DNA from: a virus
Lineage: Duplodnaviria; Heunggongvirae; Uroviricota; Caudoviricetes
Direction: 5' to 3' (one strand)
IMG/VR virus record: IMGVR_UViG_2541047901_000004
Location: 1 to 9,606 of that record
Length of the DNA stretch: 9,606 nucleotides
The notes beneath the pieces are model-generated. The model worked only from the letters and a program-made list of their open reading frames with translations, had not been told where the DNA came from and ran no database searches. The translations under genes and the position numbers were made by a program. Below are positions 1-6,459 of the stretch, piece after piece (position 1 is the first letter of the stretch; every line of letters begins with the position of its first letter).

Positions 1-1239
1 ATGGGCAGCGCAATTCATAGACTTAGCGATACTTTTTTACGAAAATTAAGCGGATCACCAGCCACAAAAAACGCCTTTTTTAATGACGGTGGCAATCTTA
101 GCGTAAGACATTCCACCAGCGGCCTTTTAACCTGGTATTTCACTTACAGGGCCGGAACTGGTAGGCAGGTATCACCTGAACGTCTGAGGCTGGGCAATTA
201 TCCCGATCTGAGCCTGAAAGCAGCCAGGGAAAAAGCGGCACAGTGTCGCGCCTGGCTGGCGGAGGGGAAAAATCCACGCCATGAGCTTAATCACACAGTG
301 CAGGAAGCGTTATCACCTGTGACGGTTAAGGAAGCGCTCACTTACTGGCTTGAGTCGTATGCGAAGGAAAAGCGCACAGACTACGAATCTCTGAAGAGCC
401 GGATCAATAAACACATAATCAGCCAGATTGGCGCTATGCCGCTGGAGAAATGCGAGCTACGGCACTGGCTGGCCTGTTTTGATCAGATGGCAAAGCTAAG
501 CCCTGTATCTGCCGGATTTTTGCTACAGGTATGCAAGCAGGCGCTTAAATACTGCCGCAAACGTCGCTACGCAATCAGCAACGTTCTTGATGATATGGTT
601 GTCGGTGATGTGGGAAAAAAAGCAGAAGTGAGCGAGCGCGTACTAACAAACAAGGAGCTTGGGGAATTACTCCGCGCCCTGGATGACAAAATATTCCCGC
701 CGTACTACAGCGCTCTGATTCGCCTCCTGATTGTTTTTGGATGCCGTACCACTGAGCTAAGACGCTCTGAGGTGCAGGAGTGGGATTTTAAGGAAATGCT
801 CTGGACAGTGCCGAAGGAGCACAGCAAAACGAAGGTCGCCATATTCAGGCCAATACCGGAAAGCATTTTGCCGTTCGTCACGCAGCTGGTGGAGCAGAAC
901 CGACGCACGGGTTTATTGCTTGGTGAACTGAAAGGGCAATCTTCGGTAGCAGAGTACGGAAGAACAGCGCACAGGCGCATTAATCAAGCCCCCTGGTCGT
1001 TGCATGACATCCGGCACACATTTACAACCATGCTGAACGATTTAGGCGTGGATCCGCATATTGTCGAGCAGCTTACAGCCCACCAGATGCCAGGGATGCA
1101 ACGAGTCTATAACCACTCCCGTTATCTCGATGCGAAACGTGATGCTCTTAATCTATGGGTAGACCGTCTCGAGCTTCTCCAGAACAATGATGAAAAAATC
1201 GTTGTTATGACCCCGCGAATTTACCACCAAAATTCTTGA
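1..1239 (+). CDS. int: Tyrosine site-specific integrase, P4 / IntA-like family
   Basis: 412-aa ORF. N-terminal region shows the P4-integrase pattern (LSDTFLRKL...DGGNLSVRHSTSGLLTWYFTYR). C-terminal catalytic region has HDIRHTFTT (His-x-x-Arg box) and RVYNHSRYLD (candidate catalytic Tyr). The ATG at position 1 leaves a short N-terminal lead typical of the family, so the gene is probably complete, but upstream sequence is not visible. Confidence 0.9.
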   Translation: MGSAIHRLSDTFLRKLSGSPATKNAFFNDGGNLSVRHSTSGLLTWYFTYRAGTGRQVSPERLRLGNYPDLSLKAAREKAAQCRAWLAEGKNPRHELNHTVQEALSPVTVKEALTYWLESYAKEKRTDYESLKSRINKHIISQIGAMPLEKCELRHWLACFDQMAKLSPVSAGFLLQVCKQALKYCRKRRYAISNVLDDMVVGDVGKKAEVSERVLTNKELGELLRALDDKIFPPYYSALIRLLIVFGCRTTELRRSEVQEWDFKEMLWTVPKEHSKTKVAIFRPIPESILPFVTQLVEQNRRTGLLLGELKGQSSVAEYGRTAHRRINQAPWSLHDIRHTFTTMLNDLGVDPHIVEQLTAHQMPGMQRVYNHSRYLDAKRDALNLWVDRLELLQNNDEKIVVMTPRIYHQNS

Positions 1240-1622
1240 CAAATCACGGCTGTTTTTTCTTTAAGAGATTACAGCCGTGAATAAATCGGTAAATATCGAC
1301 AAAATTCGTTGATTTTTTATTTGTCAATCATCGAAAAAATTGAAATGTGCTCTTATTAATCTTTATTTTCTGTTTCTTGATTCTTCCAATGGCTGATTGA
1401 TTTATCTCTTTGTTTTACATTGGATAAATCAGGCGAACTGCCAGATGACGACATTTTTTTGTTGCGTCTCTGAAAAACTCGTGACACGATTTTAAACACT
1501 AACGAGCTTCTACGAACCTTAGCGAACATAGCTTTTGGCAAGGTTGTGTCTTTAATCTAAGAGGTGAAAAATAATTTAAGCTATCTCCGGTCTCATATAT
1601 CTACAGCTAGACAAAAGTTTAT

Positions 1623-1859
1623 ATGCGTAAATTTTATGTAGGTTTTTGTATGCGTGAAATAAATGAAGATCGCGTAATTCGCGAAAAAGAGTGCAGAGAG
1701 CTAACAGGCGTTTGCCGCACAACCCGTTATGAGATGGAAAAGCAAGGTCGGTTTCCTTCCCGCATTAGTCTGGGTGGTCGTTCAGTTGGCTGGGTAAGAT
1801 CTGAGGTTGTTGCATGGGTTAATAACCGTAAGCGTGTCAATGTTGGTAAGACTGCCTGA
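1623..1859 (+). CDS. alpA: AlpA-family small DNA-binding regulator (prophage excision/transcription activator type)
   Basis: 78-aa ORF. The core RVIREKECRELTGVCRTTRYEMEKQGRFPSRISLGGRSVGWVRSEVVAWV matches the AlpA layout (HTH followed by the SVGW motif). An alternative ATG at 1650 would give 69 aa; neither start has a strong SD. Same orientation and position relative to int as in CP4-57-like elements. Confidence 0.75.
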   Translation: MRKFYVGFCMREINEDRVIREKECRELTGVCRTTRYEMEKQGRFPSRISLGGRSVGWVRSEVVAWVNNRKRVNVGKTA

Positions 1860-1872
1860 GGTTGTTGCAATG

Positions 1873-1906
1873 GTACATAAAACAAAGGCGACCGGTGGCG
1901 GTCGCC
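1873..1906 (-). terminator. Intrinsic terminator for the minus-strand small operon
   Basis: Perfect 8-bp GC-rich stem GGCGACCG / CGGTCGCC with a 4-nt loop (1887-1906). On the minus strand it is followed by TTTGTTTTATG (complement of 1873-1886). Confidence 0.55.
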
Positions 1907-1970
1907 AGTGGATACACACTAAACATAAGCCCGTGCATCATAGCGATTTGCTGGCTGGTGGGCAATTTGA

Positions 1971-2159
1971 TCAGTCAGATTCGGTTCGTTCCCAGGTTTG
2001 CAATGAGCGCTTTTCCCTGTACTCTTTAAGGAATTGCTCAAGGGCAAAAGCACATGGCGCGAATCTTTCTGATTCATGCTCTATCTTTCTGCGCCGTCTT
2101 TTCCGTGTCGGTGATAATGTTTTGGTCAATTCTTTATCGGTCATTGTGTTGTCCTGCAT
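1971..2159 (-). CDS. Hypothetical small charged protein (second gene of the minus-strand operon)
   Basis: 62-aa ORF (57 aa from the internal ATG at 2144, which has an AGGA-like SD). Lies between the RHH gene and the minus-strand terminator. No recognisable motif; basic RKRRRRK stretch. Confidence 0.3.
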   Translation of the reverse strand: MQDNTMTDKELTKTLSPTRKRRRRKIEHESERFAPCAFALEQFLKEYREKRSLQTWERTESD

Positions 2160-2201
2160 AGCAATGCGCCGTAGTTACTCACACCACGGCGCTGGTGATG
2201 G

Positions 2202-2381
2202 TTATTCCTGCTCTTTGGCCTTTCGGCGCTGGCGGCGTTTGATCTCACCTTCAAGCGCCGAAACGATAAATTGCCCAGTGCTTTCGCCTTCTTCCTTTAA
2301 ATTTTCTACAGCGTCAGCTATTGCATGGGGTACTCGTGCCTCAAGTTTTTTGGATTTTCCATTAACTGCTTTCGTTGCCAT
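2202..2381 (-). CDS. Small ribbon-helix-helix-like DNA-binding protein (candidate repressor of the element)
   Basis: 59-aa protein from the ATG at 2379-2381 (minus), with AAGGAAA SD 7 nt upstream. MATKAVNGKSKKLEARVPHAIADAVENLKEEGESTGQFIVSALEGEI fits a beta-strand/helix/helix RHH pattern. Divergent from the rightward replication operon. The longer 117-aa version in the ORF track would run into the repeat region and looks non-coding. Confidence 0.55.
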   Translation of the reverse strand: MATKAVNGKSKKLEARVPHAIADAVENLKEEGESTGQFIVSALEGEIKRRQRRKAKEQE

Positions 2382-2402
2382 ATCTGATTTCCTTGTTATT
2401 AG

Positions 2403-2485
2403 GTGGCTGACAGTATACACACAAGAAAATAGAAAAACACTATTGACGTGGCTGACACCTGTCACTAGCATAGTGGCTGACACCT
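2403..2485. promoter_or_regulatory. Divergent promoter/operator region with three direct repeats of GTGGCTGACAC
   Basis: GTGGCTGACA at 2403-2412, GTGGCTGACACCT at 2448-2460 and 2473-2485. Candidate minus-strand -10 TATACT (complement of 2412-2417) preceded by TGTG. Candidate plus-strand -35 TTGACG (2443-2448) and -10 TAGCAT (2466-2471). The repeats overlap both candidate promoters. Confidence 0.45.
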
Positions 2486-2580
2486 TTATTAAGGTAATCG
2501 ATGAAAAGACAAAGCCCGCAGGTGCTACCAACACCAACGGGCTTCTAACCACCAACGATAGCAGAAGTATCGAGGCAGCT

Positions 2581-2784
2581 ATGAGAAATTATACCAGACA
2601 CCCGCAAGGGCGGGACTCGTACAACCTGAATAAATACATCTGGCGTTTTATCGCCCTGAGCACGGCACAACCGCGCGTGATTACCATTGAGGCCACCAGC
2701 GAACAGGAAGCACGCCAGCAATCCCCGGCTGGCTGCGTGATGGTATTCGCCGCCCGTATTCGTCAGGGGGTGAGTCATGCATAA
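2581..2784 (+). CDS. Hypothetical small protein (possible first gene of the rightward operon)
   Basis: 67-aa ORF with GAGG 6 nt upstream of the ATG. Its stop overlaps the next ORF start by 8 nt (GTGAGTCATGCATAA). No recognisable motif; it shares the frame of a long, probably spurious ORF, so coding status is uncertain. Confidence 0.3.
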   Translation: MRNYTRHPQGRDSYNLNKYIWRFIALSTAQPRVITIEATSEQEARQQSPAGCVMVFAARIRQGVSHA

Positions 2785-3004
2785 AATACCCTTTGATGTT
2801 CTTGTTCATTCTGAAAACGCATTAATCCGCGCAAAGGAAATGGACGCATTACTACTTAAGTTAATTGATGTGCCGGAAAGTGGCGATGAATCTGATTCAA
2901 TGATGTTTTCTGCCGTGCGTACGCTATTAACGCCTGTTATTAATGAATTAAATACAGTGATGGCAATTCACGAGAATAATAAAGCGCAGCACACCGGAGA
3001 ATAA
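2777..3004 (+). CDS. Hypothetical small acidic protein
   Basis: 75-aa ORF preceded by GGGGGTGAG. Tightly packed in the operon leading to the replication gene. No motif recognised. Confidence 0.5.
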   Translation: MHKIPFDVLVHSENALIRAKEMDALLLKLIDVPESGDESDSMMFSAVRTLLTPVINELNTVMAIHENNKAQHTGE

Positions 3005-3009
3005 AAAAC

Positions 3010-3291
3010 ATGAAAAATAAAAATTCTGGCGTTACTGCCAGCGGCCCCGCTCGTCCTGAATTTATGAACGGCGATATTTACCGCGATAAATATGGCGGCA
3101 TGGTAACGATTAAAGGCGTGGCAGAACGGCGCATCACCTACCGCCGTGAAGGTTACGAATATGATTGCGTGATGCCTGTTTATCAATTCCGGCGTGATTT
3201 CACGCTGGTGGGCCATCGTAAAGCCGTAAATCAGAAACGTGCAGCAAGTCATATCCGCAAAATCCGTGAAATGCTGGTCGCAGGGGGGTAA
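3010..3291 (+). CDS. Hypothetical small basic protein
   Basis: 93-aa ORF with GGAGA 11 nt upstream. Stops 3 nt before the replication-gene ATG. No motif recognised. Confidence 0.55.
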   Translation: MKNKNSGVTASGPARPEFMNGDIYRDKYGGMVTIKGVAERRITYRREGYEYDCVMPVYQFRRDFTLVGHRKAVNQKRAASHIRKIREMLVAGG

Positions 3292-3294
3292 GAA

Positions 3295-5049
3295 ATGAAA
3301 CTGGCACCGAACGTAAAAAAACAGCCTCGCGGAATAAAACACGAACAAACCGAAGTGATCATTTTTGCGGGTAGTGATGCTTGGTCACACGCGAAACAGT
3401 GGCAGGAACACGACGCGCGTACAGCCGGAGATAATGAGCCTCCTGTGTGGCTTGGAGAGCAGCAGCTATCCGAACTGGATAATCTACAGATTGTACCGGA
3501 AGGCCGAACATACGCTCGTATCTACAGAGCCGGACATCTTGCGCCTGTAATGATTAAGGCGATTGGTCAGAATCTGGCTGCGGCAGGCGTACAGGATGCA
3601 AATTTTTACCCTGAGGGAATGCACGGTAAGAAGGTGGAGAACTGGCGCGAATATCTGGCCCGTGAACGCCAGAATCTTTCTGATGGGCTGGTTATTGAGC
3701 TTCCGGTAAAGCAAAAAATGCAGCTTTCGCAGATGGCGGACAGTGAGCGCGCGCAACTGCTTGTCGATCGCTTTGATAGCGTTTGTGTGCATCCGGAAAG
3801 TGAAATCATCCACGTCTGGCGCGGCGGGGTATGGTGTCCGGTCAGCACAATGGAACTGAGCCGCGAAATGGTGGCGATTTATTCAGAACATAAAGCCACT
3901 TTCAGCAAGCGCGTAATCAGTAACGCCATTGAAGCGTTAAAAGTTATTGCCGAACCAATGGGCGAGCCGTCCGGTGATTTGCTGCCGTTCGCTAATGGCG
4001 TGCTTGACCTGAAAACAGGGGAATTTTCCCCGCACTCGCCTGATAACTGGATCACCACACACAACGGCATTGAGTACACGCCGCCAGTACCAGGGGAGAA
4101 TATCCGCGACAACGCGCCAAACTTTCATAAATGGCTTGATCACGCAGCCGGAAAAGACCCGGGCAAGATGATGCGCATATGTGCCGCGCTATACATGATT
4201 ATGGCGAACCGGTACGACTGGCAGATGTTTATTGAGGCCACAGGAGACGGCGGGAGCGGCAAGAGTACATTTACGCACATAGCCAGCCTTCTGGCAGGGA
4301 AACAGAACACAGTAAGCGCTGAGATGACATCGCTTGATGATGCTGGTGGGCGTGCGCAGGTTGTCGGGAGTCGGCTTATCGTCCTGGCAGACCAGCCGAA
4401 ATATACAGGCGAAGGAACGGGCATCAAGAAAATCACGGGCGGCGACCCCGTGGAAATTAACCCGAAATATGAAAAGCGTTTTACGGCGGTAATCAGGGCG
4501 GTGGTGCTGGCAACCAATAACAATCCGATGATATTCACCGAACGGGCCGGAGGTGTGGCACGTCGTCGGGTGATATTCCGGTTCGATAACATCGTAAGCG
4601 AGGCAGAAAAAGACAGGGAGCTACCGGAAAAGATCGCGGCTGAAATCCCTGTCATTATCCGCCGCTTGCTGGCGAACTTTGCCGACCCTGAAAAGGCACG
4701 GGCTTTACTCATTGAACAGCGTGACGGTGATGAAGCACTGGCAATAAAGCAACAGACGGATCCGGTTATTGAGTTTTGCCAGTTCCTGAATTTTCTGGAG
4801 GAAGCACGCGGCCTGATGATGGGCGGCGGTGGCGATTCAGTGAAGTACACGACCAGAAACAGCCTTTACCGCGTCTATCTGGCGTTTATGGCGTACGCAG
4901 GCAGGAGCAAACCGCTAAACGTAAATGACTTTGGCAAGGCTATGAAGCCAGCTGCGAAAGTTTACGGACATGAATATATTACGCGGAAAGTTAAGGGAGT
5001 AACGCAGACTAACGCAATAACAACAGACGAGTGCGACGCGTTTTTATAA
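3295..5049 (+). CDS. Replication initiator: D5_N-like region plus SF3 (P4 alpha / D5-type) helicase with C-terminal domain
   Basis: 584 aa, GGGGGG SD 6 nt upstream. Walker A GDGGSGKST (about 4243-4269), Walker B RLIVLADQ, motif C VVLATNNNP. Upstream LPFANGVLDLKTGEFSPH resembles the D5_N region of phage/plasmid primase-helicases. The N-terminal ~230 aa could not be assigned to a primase fold by eye. Confidence 0.85.
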   Translation: MKLAPNVKKQPRGIKHEQTEVIIFAGSDAWSHAKQWQEHDARTAGDNEPPVWLGEQQLSELDNLQIVPEGRTYARIYRAGHLAPVMIKAIGQNLAAAGVQDANFYPEGMHGKKVENWREYLARERQNLSDGLVIELPVKQKMQLSQMADSERAQLLVDRFDSVCVHPESEIIHVWRGGVWCPVSTMELSREMVAIYSEHKATFSKRVISNAIEALKVIAEPMGEPSGDLLPFANGVLDLKTGEFSPHSPDNWITTHNGIEYTPPVPGENIRDNAPNFHKWLDHAAGKDPGKMMRICAALYMIMANRYDWQMFIEATGDGGSGKSTFTHIASLLAGKQNTVSAEMTSLDDAGGRAQVVGSRLIVLADQPKYTGEGTGIKKITGGDPVEINPKYEKRFTAVIRAVVLATNNNPMIFTERAGGVARRRVIFRFDNIVSEAEKDRELPEKIAAEIPVIIRRLLANFADPEKARALLIEQRDGDEALAIKQQTDPVIEFCQFLNFLEEARGLMMGGGGDSVKYTTRNSLYRVYLAFMAYAGRSKPLNVNDFGKAMKPAAKVYGHEYITRKVKGVTQTNAITTDECDAFL

Positions 5050-5063
5050 TTTTTTGTAATTGC

Positions 5064-5289
5064 TGTCTACCCTGTCTACCTGAGTAAATAAAAATACATT
5101 TAATTCAGTGCATTAAGTTAGGTAGATAGCCTTTTTTTACTGTCTACCCACTATCTCCCCTCTCTACCTGATTTTACCTGAATCAGACAGGGAGGTAGAC
5201 ACGGGGTAGATAGTGGATAAAAGCACTCTACCCCGCTGAAAGCCGCGCCATTACTGGCATGAGGGCCACTAAGGTAGATAAGGTAGACA
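5064..5289. repeat. Iteron cluster, putative origin of replication
   Basis: Octamer GGTAGAYA and its complement TGTCTACC at 5064, 5073, 5141 (TGTCTACC) and 5121, 5194, 5205, 5273, 5282 (GGTAGAYA), plus degenerate copies near 5151, 5162 and 5226. Opposite orientations flank an AT-rich core (5081-5120). Sits immediately 3' of the helicase gene. Confidence 0.65.
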
Positions 5290-5337
5290 AGGGGAGGCAC
5301 AACTCAAAACTTTTTAAACGAGGGGGTAAAAATAAAT

Positions 5338-5616
5338 ATGCACACTTCAGGGAAATTTAATAAATCACTCAAAAAACGCAGAGACAGAACAGAACCGAAA
5401 TATCGCGCGTTAGACATGACAGAGCACGCTTTAAAGGTGGCAATCAGAACGATAGACCGCCACGCGGGGGAAGGATACGCGAAAGCACATCCCGAACTGA
5501 TAAGCGCATTCATGACCACGACGGCGGCAAATTTTGCCACGCTGACAGAGCGGGAGATTGCCGAAGCGGAACAGGTAACAACCATCAACGTTAAAACCGG
5601 AGAGCAGACAGCATGA
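5338..5616 (+). CDS. Hypothetical protein, translationally coupled to the SSB-like gene
   Basis: 92-aa ORF with GAGGGGG SD. Its stop overlaps the next start in ATGA (5613-5616). No motif recognised. Confidence 0.5.
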   Translation: MHTSGKFNKSLKKRRDRTEPKYRALDMTEHALKVAIRTIDRHAGEGYAKAHPELISAFMTTTAANFATLTEREIAEAEQVTTINVKTGEQTA

Positions 5617-6035
5617 CAGCACAGATAGCGGCTTACGGGCGGCTGGTGGCTGACCCGCAGTTAAAGACCACCAGCAAAGGGACACAAATGGCGATGGCGA
5701 GTATGGCGGTTCCCCTGCCGTGCAGCCAGGCAGATGACGGAACGGCGACAATGTGGTTATCCGTTCTGGCGTTTGGTAGGCAGGCCGACGCACTGGCAAA
5801 ACACCACAAAGGCGAACTGGTGAGCGTGGCGGGTAACATGCAGGTAAGCCAGTGGACAGGCCAGAACGGCGAAATACGGCAGGGCTGGCAGGTTATCGCA
5901 GACAGTGTAATCAGTGCCAGAACGGCGCGACCAGGTGGTAAAAAAGGCCAACAGGGGCAGGCCACTGACGCACTGAACAGGGCAAAACAACAGGCGGGAA
6001 ATGATGATCCGTACGGGGATAACATACCGTTTTAA
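5613..6035 (+). CDS. ssb: Short single-stranded-DNA-binding (SSB)-like protein with conserved C-terminal IPF tip
   Basis: 140 aa. The OB-fold region aligns by eye to E. coli SSB (GRLVADPQLK...TQMAMASMAV ; WLSVLAFGRQADALAKHHKGELVSVAGNMQVSQWTGQNGEIRQGWQVIADSV). The C-terminus DDPYGDNIPF resembles the SSB tail DFDDDIPF. The Gly/Gln-rich linker is much shorter than in host SSB. Confidence 0.8.
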   Translation: MTAQIAAYGRLVADPQLKTTSKGTQMAMASMAVPLPCSQADDGTATMWLSVLAFGRQADALAKHHKGELVSVAGNMQVSQWTGQNGEIRQGWQVIADSVISARTARPGGKKGQQGQATDALNRAKQQAGNDDPYGDNIPF

Positions 6036-6051
6036 GCAACGAGTAACAGAG

Positions 6052-6073
6052 GCCGGAGCAATCCGGCTTTTTT
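6052..6073 (+). terminator. Intrinsic terminator after the replication/SSB operon
   Basis: Stem GCCGGA / TCCGGC with loop GCAA, followed by TTTTTT (6068-6073), 17 nt after the ssb stop. Confidence 0.6.
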
Positions 6074-6074
6074 A

Positions 6075-6144
6075 CGGGTCCTCCCGGTGTAGTGACCTGC
6101 CACGGGGCGGGAGCGGCGCGGAAAAAGGCTGGTTTTTGCATTTT
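6075..6144 (+). repeat. Copy 1 of a 70-bp conserved element (putative late-operon regulatory site)
   Basis: CGGGTCCTCCCGGTGTAGTGACCTGCCACGGGGCGGGAGCGGCGCGGAAAAAGGCTGGTTTTTGCATTTT. Matches 8611-8680 at 68 of 70 positions. Contains an imperfect dyad (CTCCCG ... CGGGAG). Confidence 0.8.
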
Positions 6145-6191
6145 CATGGCGGCGGCAGCATGTGTGATAATTTATTGATAATTAAAAATTA

Positions 6192-6292
6192 TTTCTGTTT
6201 TCACCTGTACAATATTTTTTTCTCCCTGTCATTAGATCAGTTTGCAATTAATTGAAATATATAAATAAATCTGTTTTTCACCTGCCAGGTGG
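6192..6292. promoter_or_regulatory. Leader region with direct repeats TCTGTTTT(T)CACCTG and a CACCTG-C-CAGGTG palindrome
   Basis: TCTGTTTTCACCTG at 6194-6207 and TCTGTTTTTCACCTG at 6270-6284. Perfect inverted repeat CACCTGcCAGGTG at 6279-6291. Extended -10-like TGTGATAAT at 6163-6171 lies upstream. Confidence 0.3.
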
Positions 6293-6334
6293 AGTTGCCT
6301 GTGTCAAAACGTGTTCAGATGGCGGGATATTTAT

Positions 6335-6357
6335 GCCGGATTTTCTCCGGCTTTTTT
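6335..6357 (+). terminator. Intrinsic terminator/attenuator inside the leader of the capsid operon
   Basis: Stem GCCGGA / TCCGGC (same arms as the 6052 terminator) with loop TTTTC, followed by TTTTTT (6352-6357). Lies about 100 nt upstream of the next start codon. Confidence 0.45.
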
Positions 6358-6459
6358 GTGTCTGAATCTTATTAATCTATTTTTATGATAGAAATATGTT
6401 TATCTACCACTTTTATCGATCAATAATGTGCACAGTTTAGTCAGTAAGAGGAAGTTACT

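Follow-up and report, generated by a model that had tools for sequence, protein, structure and literature searches.

Three small genes precede the replication initiator of a satellite

We analyzed a 9,606-nucleotide (nt) stretch of DNA (here, the window), positions 1 to 9,606 of the IMG/VR virus record IMGVR_UViG_2541047901_000004, in which three small open reading frames (ORFs) lie directly upstream of pri, the replication initiator gene. Sequence comparison identifies the stretch as an Escherichia coli satellite, a phage-inducible chromosomal island (PICI) of the EcCICFT073/EcCIIHE3034 type, because it has the same attachment (att) site as the tested PICI of strain IHE3034 and the same gene block as EcCICFT073. 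On the plus strand, ORF1 (2581-2784), ORF2 (2777-3004) and ORF3 (3010-3291) form a chain that runs into pri. ORF1 and ORF2 overlap by 8 nt (2777-2784), 5 nt separate ORF2 from ORF3, and the end of ORF3 is 3 nt from the pri ATG at 3295. Each of the three starts is preceded by a Shine-Dalgarno (SD) sequence. RefSeq annotates the same three genes in the identical locus of E. coli IrN, as an Icd-like protein, the hypothetical protein WP_000549001.1, and a DUF4222 protein. An earlier reading made from the letters alone (here, the sequence-only reading) had described the three ORFs as tightly packed and partly overlapping in an operon leading to the helicase gene (pri), and the coordinates, the RefSeq annotation, and these overlaps and gaps all bear it out.

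To judge by substitution patterns, all three ORFs are real, conserved early genes under purifying selection. Across 9 to 10 island variants, the median ratio of nonsynonymous to synonymous substitution rates (dN/dS; pairwise, Nei-Gojobori) is 0.30 for ORF1, 0.46 for ORF2, and 0.35 for ORF3. The frames are kept in the relatives, with a single frameshifted DUF4222 gene among 13 of them (L011), so that frame-breaking indels, which the sequence-only reading had named as the observation that would speak against the cluster, do not undermine it. Between icd and rgdR (the ORF3 gene), the islands differ in a cassette of small ORFs, which number one to four. None of the three proteins matches a defense system in PADLOC at an E value of 0.01 or less, and sequence searches of the PDB with ORF1, ORF2, ORF3, and the nearby YlcI returned nothing meaningful. 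On this sequence evidence the cluster is a regular part of a common E. coli satellite family, in which two of the three genes already have names and only ORF2 is an orphan.

ORF1 is an Icd-like protein of the P4 Kil family

ORF1 (2581..2784, plus strand) encodes a basic protein of 67 amino acids (aa; isoelectric point [pI] 10.4) and, with a GAGG 5 nt upstream of its ATG, is the first ORF in the replication operon that can start independently. It matches the NCBIfam family NF033153, "host cell division inhibitor Icd-like," with 69.8 bits (cutoff, 25; E = 1.5e-19) and phrog_6196 with an E value of 1.7e-43, and it is 94% identical to the Icd-like protein of EcCICFT073. The Kil protein of P4 (65 aa, encoded by the 3' portion of what was formerly the "cI/ash" ORF) falls into the same family (76.1 bits; E = 1.6e-21), and tblastn relatives of P4 Kil are found in the N15 gp32/cA region and in PY54 icd. 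The sequence-only reading had rated this 67-aa ORF as weaker than its neighbors. It is real, as that reading allowed, but the rating does not survive the strong match to a curated family (NF033153) or the finding that ORF1 is the end of a longer open frame (1798-2784).

In sister loci L005, L009, and L012, a C4 RNA (RF01695, 73 to 84 bits) lies directly upstream of the Icd-like ORF, and in L005 and L012 isrK (66 to 73 bits) is found there as well; the Rfam matches to one or both RNAs span L005 2214-2429, L012 3285-3470, and L009 3300-3387. The presence of these RNAs ahead of the Icd-like ORFs of sister islands ties the family to immunity of the P1/P4 type. An Rfam scan of the window (E of 1 or less) gave no credible C4 or isrK RNA upstream of ORF1, nor any other RNA. 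P4 Kil kills cells (PMC10111431); by analogy, ORF1 would block host cell division or kill the host upon induction.

ORF2 is the orphan of the cluster

ORF2 (2777..3004, plus strand) encodes an acidic protein of 75 aa (pI 5.0) that is predicted to form a two-helix hairpin. Its AlphaFold2 model (pLDDT, 85.8) places helices at residues 6-30 and 38-72, and a Foldseek comparison of the model with the PDB returned generic helical hairpins only (E > 0.7). The protein matches phrog_2196, a family of unknown function (E = 4e-10), and has no match in Pfam, NCBIfam, or PADLOC. An exhaustive profile search found only 14 representative clusters among 1.84 billion proteins, all of them small hypotheticals; a k-mer search found E. 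coli and Shigella proteins only, almost all exactly 75 aa long; and a scan of the genome collection with the ORF2 profile found nothing. The statement of the sequence-only reading that none of the three ORFs belongs to a recognized family therefore holds for ORF2 alone, since ORF1 belongs to NF033153 and ORF3 carries DUF4222. Likewise, of the three candidates for undescribed functions that it put forward, only ORF2 remains one, the other two being members of known families.

Homologues that are 32 to 41% identical to ORF2 occur in EcCICFT073 (41%), in the O55:H7 island, in a Shigella island, and in the capsid-forming PICI (cf-PICI) vB_KppS-Ant, always as the last small ORF before rgdR or pri. 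Both helices are conserved and the connecting loop is variable. The protein identical to ORF2, WP_000549001.1, is present in IHE3034 and IAI39, and the islands that share it differ by 18 to 38% in the flanks, which points to mosaic exchange. We infer that ORF2, as an acidic helical hairpin, would serve as an adaptor or an inhibitor and bind a partner that is conserved.

ORF3 is an RgdR-family protein

ORF3 (3010..3291, plus strand) encodes a basic protein of 93 aa (pI 10.2) that matches DUF4222 (PF13973) over profile positions 1-52 of 53 (E = 1e-24; 86.3 bits, with a gathering score of 27); its relatives are 95 to 99 aa long. The predicted fold is an SH3/Tudor-like barrel with a basic C-terminal helix, and the Tudor-like part resembles RNA polymerase-binding domains. 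Sequence and position together mark ORF3 as an orthologue of RgdR/ECs1581/C1493, with 63% identity to the O55:H7 and 65% to the CFT073 orthologue and the same place before the island replicase.

RgdR (ECs1581), from O-island 51 of enterohemorrhagic E. coli (EHEC), activates LEE1 and type III secretion (T3S), represses motility, and binds DNA without specificity (PMC3378721). Orthologues have been described in CFT073 (C1493), IHE3034, and IAI39, and also in strains without the enterocyte effacement locus (LEE) (PMC3378721), and a 2018 survey reported RgdR in all E. coli PICIs that it analyzed (PMC6092414). Residues 20-22 of ORF3 are N20-G21-D22, where the O55:H7 and CFT073 proteins have RGD; a change of residue 20 to N lowered the activation of T3S by RgdR (Flockhart et al. 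2012, PMC3378721). ORF3 would bind DNA nonspecifically and modulate host transcription globally, possibly via RNA polymerase.

Two further observations concern this gene. ORF3 has the HRKAVNQKR...GG(KK) allele of the C-terminal tail, but in the window it ends in ...AGG-stop (3283-3297), 3 nt before pri, whereas in most relatives the end is ...GGKK and the stop and start codons overlap as ATGA; both the final two lysines of ORF3 and this 4-nt overlap with the replicase were lost through a 1-nt difference before pri. In addition, the CFT073 lambdoid prophage at icd, the site reported for the helper prophage of EcCICFT073 (PMC10111431), carries a 79-aa DUF4222 gene near xis (L014 15192-15431), so that RgdR-like proteins are not confined to satellites.

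A long stop-free frame ends in ORF1

An Eta-like frame (1870..2784, plus strand; open from 1798) is in frame with ORF1, shares its stop codon, and runs antisense through ylcI. The interval 1798-2784 is a stop-free frame of 328 codons, of which about 300 follow the ATG at 1870. The SD sequence of this ATG, GAGG at 1858-1861, overlaps the stop codon of alpA, and an SD sequence and ATG just after the preceding gene were found at seven of the nine loci examined. The 3' end of alpA also carries a 25-nt direct repeat (84% identical, CTGAGGTTGTTGCA..., 1801-1825 and 1856-1880, plus strand), which may be a recombination junction and whose second copy contains the stop codon of alpA as well as the GAGG and ATG from which the Eta-like frame starts.

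In the window, the Eta-like frame has 0 stops, compared with 16 and 21 in the other two plus-strand frames. Nine of the 13 related islands, for 10 loci in all, are likewise stop-free over the 726 to 1,128 nt upstream of the Icd domain, among them the Klebsiella cf-PICI vB_KppS-Ant, a Morganella island, and EcCICFT073 (433 codons), and across the same stretch the other two plus-strand frames hold 13 to 28 stops. When the sequences were shuffled with dinucleotide composition preserved, none of 2,000 shuffles per locus was stop-free at the nine loci tested. Outside the part antisense to ylcI, dN/dS of the frame is nevertheless close to 1 (0.63 to 1.28). A frame that is stop-free and yet has such a ratio suggests that selection acts on translatability rather than on peptide sequence, and the Eta-like frame thus appears, from these sequence patterns, to be kept for translation itself, as an analogue of P4 eta.

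We had also considered the N-terminal part of the frame as a conserved protein, and rejected this candidate on account of the dN/dS near 1 and the lack of a Pfam domain in the E. coli versions. An all-frame blastp comparison of the region was uninformative. In the Morganella island, a Pfam match to "Phage_ASH" coincides with the isrK/C4 RNA genes, which suggests that this Pfam family may consist for the most part of translated RNA genes.

YlcI lies opposite the long frame, next to operator-like repeats

Nested antisense inside the Eta-like frame is a RefSeq-annotated gene of the ylcI/ynfO family (2202..2381, minus strand; 59 aa; NF041551, E = 4e-17), whose own-frame dN/dS is 0.09 to 0.29. YlcI gives a weak in-register hhalign match (probability, 25%) to the ribbon-helix-helix repressor Arc of P22, and from this match we regard it as a putative ribbon-helix-helix repressor. 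The 199-bp spacer between ylcI and ORF1 (2382-2580) contains a sigma-70-like promoter directed at ORF1 (TTGACG, 17 nt, TAGCAT; 2443-2471). At 2403, 2448, and 2473 (2403..2485), three direct repeats that resemble operators, GTGGCTGACA(C), overlap or bracket this promoter.

All sister islands have a conserved TTGAC -35 element flanked by GTG-N5-CAC repeats, and the center of the repeat co-varies with the N-terminal strand of YlcI across islands. The window and L012 combine the repeat GTGGCTGACAC with the strand KKLEARVP; L002, L009, and L011 combine GTGTTCAACAC with QTVAARVP; and L008 combines GTGTATTTCAC with QMTTVRIP. CFT073 has the repeat GTGGGCCACAC. This co-variation of operator and strand makes YlcI a candidate for an island-specific repressor, that is, an immunity determinant, of Gram-negative PICIs. 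The repressor of these elements was described as unclear in 2018 (PMC6092414), and no link between YlcI/YnfO and PICI regulation was found in the searchable literature.

Downstream of the promoter, the leader can form a hairpin (AAGCCCG...CGGGCTT; 2512..2544, plus strand) for which RNAalifold, applied to nine islands, predicts 14 pairs, 5 of them with compensatory changes; its single-sequence z-score is -2.3. On its 3' side follow an invariant C-rich tract, TCTAACCACCAACG, and then a second small hairpin beside the SD sequence of ORF1 (2512-2580 region). The leader hairpin and the C-rich tract could be a Rho-utilization or processing signal.

The satellite, its other genes, and its distribution

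The window agrees with the features of a PICI: int, alpA, and the pri-rep block lie in the same orientation within about 10 kb, the element has its own att site, and capsid and packaging remnants are present. The ORF listing and domain scans placed a tyrosine integrase at 1-1239 and found neither tail nor lysis genes in the element. The alpA gene (1650..1859, plus strand; PF05930, E = 7.8e-16) is a RefSeq coding sequence; AlpA is the activator of the PICI cycle, and its overexpression induces the island and harms growth (PMC6092414). The pri gene (3295..5049, plus strand) encodes a D5_N/DUF5906/P4-family primase C-terminal domain and is followed by a small ORF and ssb. Farther on, one gene (6666-8579, plus strand) encodes a fusion of a ClpP-like prohead protease with an HK97-type major capsid protein, and another encodes a DUF1441 protein.

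Several other features of the map stand apart from the cluster. The protease/capsid fusion sits in an island of only about 10 kb, and close relatives encode the capsid and decoration proteins in separate genes. After ssb (6068-6147) and again after the capsid gene (8604-8683) lies an 80-nt direct repeat (95% identical, plus strand); both copies fold into long hairpins (-36 to -38 kcal/mol) with a U-run behind them, and the two are probably duplicated, possibly bidirectional, terminators that bound modules. Residues 1-125 of Pri (3295-3669) are 64% identical to the N terminus of the RepA-family helicase replicase of the O55:H7 island (L007 6971-7336); by this similarity, the N-terminal 125 aa are a swappable module common to different replicase types.

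The window is 100% identical by megablast to the E. coli IrN locus between cspD/yljB and clpS. EcCIIHE3034, which Fillol-Salom et al. (2018, PMC6092414) included in their tests of PICIs and whose att site they list, shares this site (cspD/yljB-clpS). The island at the same site in IHE3034 is 88.6% identical over a 3.6-kb query and 82.5% over positions 1500-3400. The order int, alpA, ylcI (minus strand), icd-like gene, small ORFs, DUF4222, replicase, ssb recurs in IrN, IHE3034, CFT073, IAI39, O55:H7, and others, and 1,804 to 1,967 of 5,426 complete E. coli genomes, about one-third, contain similar DNA.

A blastn search of phage genomes with positions 2400-3400 found no match, and the sole phage match of a tblastn search with ORF1 was a 16.5-kb record that is really a cf-PICI; this record (LR881103.1; L006) was deposited under the name "Escherichia phage vB_KppS-Ant," and in gene content it is a capsid-forming PICI. 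The plasmid collection gave a few partial matches only. Two "plasmids" of about 10.5 to 10.8 kb, NZ_CP148328.1 and NZ_CP142848.1, carry ORF1-like DNA and may be excised satellites. A scan of the genome collection with Pri returned three loci only.

A proposed read-through model for the early operon

We favor, as probable on balance, a model in which the cluster is the promoter-proximal part of an early (replication) operon that is organized like the P4 left operon and controlled by Eta/Kil-type read-through. The model starts from what is observed, namely, the reality of the genes, their family membership and synteny, the stop-free frame, and the co-variation of operators and putative repressor. 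From these we infer antitermination, a repressor role of YlcI, and every biochemical activity, the mechanism being modeled on P4 eta/kil and P1 c4-icd-ant. Once a helper phage switches alpA on, transcripts from the alpA promoter would be translated continuously along the stop-free frame, across antisense ylcI, the internal promoter, and the leader hairpin with its C-rich tract. Continuous translation would block Rho termination, and ORF2, ORF3, and pri would be expressed by translational coupling. ORF1 may start from its own SD sequence and ATG (2581) or be made as the 3' end of the Eta-like frame. In the quiescent state, YlcI bound to the three GTGGCTGACA operators would hold the internal promoter off. 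This control would replace the CI/C4 RNA immunity of P4, with the internal promoter as the analogue of the P4 promoter PLE.

Several findings weigh against this model. Three of 13 relatives (L003, L004, and L012) keep only the short Icd-like ORF and have no long open frame, which indicates that the long frame is dispensable. Its N-terminal part is under no purifying selection and could alternatively be a decaying Bro-family gene. The ribbon-helix-helix assignment of YlcI comes from the one hhalign match at 25%, with no Pfam match beside it. The window has no C4 or isrK RNA, so that the analogy with P4 is partial. As for ORF3, it carries N20, the change linked to lower T3S activation (PMC3378721), and the DUF4222 gene of the CFT073 lambdoid prophage sits beside xis, away from replicases.

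A bolder version of the model joins several claims, and as a whole we hold it only tentatively, as rather less than an even prospect. According to this version, the RNA-immunity device of P4 has been rebuilt with a protein, YlcI, with its island-specific GTG-N5-CAC operators, being the long-sought master repressor of Gram-negative PICIs; a frame whose sequence is unconstrained is kept stop-free solely for ribosome-driven read-through; and ORF2 represents a new class of satellite-specific effector in the place of epsilon.

One alternative concerns the function of the cluster: ORF2, and perhaps ORF3, may manipulate the helper, as an epsilon-like antirepressor or as an interference or antidefense protein. 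The sequence-only reading had pointed out that helper-manipulating functions are common at this position in satellites, and to expect early accessory or helper-manipulating genes here is reasonable, since the arrangement matches P4 gene for gene and epsilon of P4 serves helper derepression. ORF2 occupies the position of P4 epsilon, directly after kil and with the same 8-nt overlap at the kil stop (P4 8168-8175; window 2777-2784). It is also small, acidic, and helical, like many protein-binding inhibitors, and a variable cassette between icd and rgdR is what would be expected of accessory functions in an arms race. However, ORF2 has no detectable homology to epsilon (hhalign probability, 0.35%) and no match to PADLOC or to another family that would indicate such a role. 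Its helices are conserved, only its loop varies, and its dN/dS of 0.46 is not elevated, which points to a conserved partner, not to a phage target that evolves fast. Islands with different flanks moreover share the identical protein, and the documented effects of RgdR are directed at the host and not at the helper (PMC3378721). We consider helper manipulation unlikely, though a live rival.

It is also conceivable that ORF2, ORF3, or both are accessory proteins that act on Pri, for example by regulating copy number as Cnr does, by loading, or as cofactors that bind the origin, with translational coupling fixing their stoichiometry relative to the initiator. Both lie just before the initiator gene and are coupled with it, in most relatives a 4-nt overlap joins rgdR to the start of the replicase gene, and the ORF2 homologue of cf-PICI vB_KppS-Ant lies directly before pri. 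Directly before alpha, P4 has orf106 (DUF5375), which we take to be cnr, a regulator that binds alpha. Neither ORF2 nor ORF3, however, matches DUF5375 in Pfam. RgdR does bind DNA, but expressed alone it alters host transcription (PMC3378721). DUF4222 precedes three unrelated replicase types (pri, a RepA-type helicase, and DUF927), does not occur in the islands of Serratia and Morganella or in the cf-PICI, although their Pri proteins are homologous, and is found far from any replicase in the lambdoid prophage. The varied replicases, the absences, and the xis-adjacent copy argue against an obligatory role of DUF4222 in replication, and we judge an accessory function for Pri distinctly unlikely.

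The block might instead be primarily an abortive-infection or programmed-cell-death module, in which the Icd-like toxin and the neighboring proteins would detect a phage protein and then arrest or kill the cell, as reported for a prophage locus of ECOR61. That locus inhibits growth upon expression of phage orf24, and removal of its Icd-like gene abolishes the effect (Silas et al.); its long form corresponds to the Eta-like frame described here. The same phenotype is equally explained by a helper-encoded inducer that switches a satellite on, AlpA overexpression alone being toxic, and the three proteins have no PADLOC match. We think it improbable that the block is such a module. Likened by description rather than by sequence, the ECOR61 locus is probably the same kind of operon, and its phenotype indirectly supports toxicity of the Icd-like product once activated.

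That some of the ORFs are chance open frames in a leader region, as their shortness, the long frame with dN/dS near 1, and several clearly spurious antisense ORFs in the region might suggest, is effectively refuted by the curated hidden Markov model matches of ORF1 and ORF3, the conserved lengths, the dN/dS below 0.5 for all three, the good SD sequence and coupling at each start, the confident helical model of ORF2, and the published phenotype of the ORF3 orthologue.

As a find, the cluster itself adds little, being a standard part of a very common satellite present in about one-third of complete E. coli genomes. The read-through model, by tying the PICI early operon to the logic of P4 eta/kil and P1 icd, gives a testable account of how AlpA induction would reach the replication genes, and YlcI with its co-varying operators offers a candidate for the Gram-negative PICI repressor that was left unclear in 2018. 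The analysis also narrows the real unknowns to the ORF2 family and to what RgdR natively does. Since RgdR variants affect virulence gene expression in EHEC, the role of this protein in the satellite cycle is of practical interest.

Comparison with known systems

The left operon of P4 reads vis, eta/kil (nested), epsilon, orf151, orf106, alpha, and the window mirrors both this order and its strand logic. Kil and ORF1 belong to NF033153, and both operons end in a P4-family primase/helicase. The open frame of P4 eta is 217 codons long, overlaps the end of vis (the homologue of alpA), and contains kil in the same reading frame; the nesting in the window is the same. Translation of eta prevents termination in P4, Kil is a truncated form, and eta contains the RNAs CI and seqA (Rfam C4 and isrK) (Mageeney et al., PMC10111431). 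Unlike P4, the window has no CI/C4 or isrK RNA; its long frame contains an antisense YlcI/YnfO gene as well as operators of the protein type. Neither ORF2 nor ORF3 is a homologue of epsilon, orf151, or orf106, and the Pri protein of the window lacks the N-terminal zinc-finger/toprim part of P4 alpha, which the Morganella relative has.

The immI modules of P1, N15, and PY54 (c4 RNA, icd, and antirepressor) resemble the window in that an Icd-family ORF is the first to be translated and that read-through depends on its translation, as the model predicts for the window. They differ from it in that the genes downstream in the window serve replication rather than encode an antirepressor, and in that the window has no RNA repressor. 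P1 Icd is reportedly an inhibitor of cell division, and Rho-dependent polarity is said to operate in that system.

RgdR of EHEC O157:H7 (ECs1581; O-island 51/CP-933C) and ORF3 are both DUF4222 proteins of about 93 to 99 aa encoded upstream of a replicase. ORF3 departs from RgdR in having NGD for RGD at residues 20-22 and in the loss of the last two lysines.

EcCICFT073 differs from the window in its operator sequence and YlcI allele, has four small ORFs between icd and rgdR where the window has one, and carries separate capsid and decoration genes where the window has the capsid fusion. Its three proteins are 94% (ORF1), 41% (ORF2), and 65% (ORF3) identical to those described here, and it shares with the window the whole series alpA, ylcI (minus strand), icd-like gene, small ORFs, rgdR, pri, and ssb.

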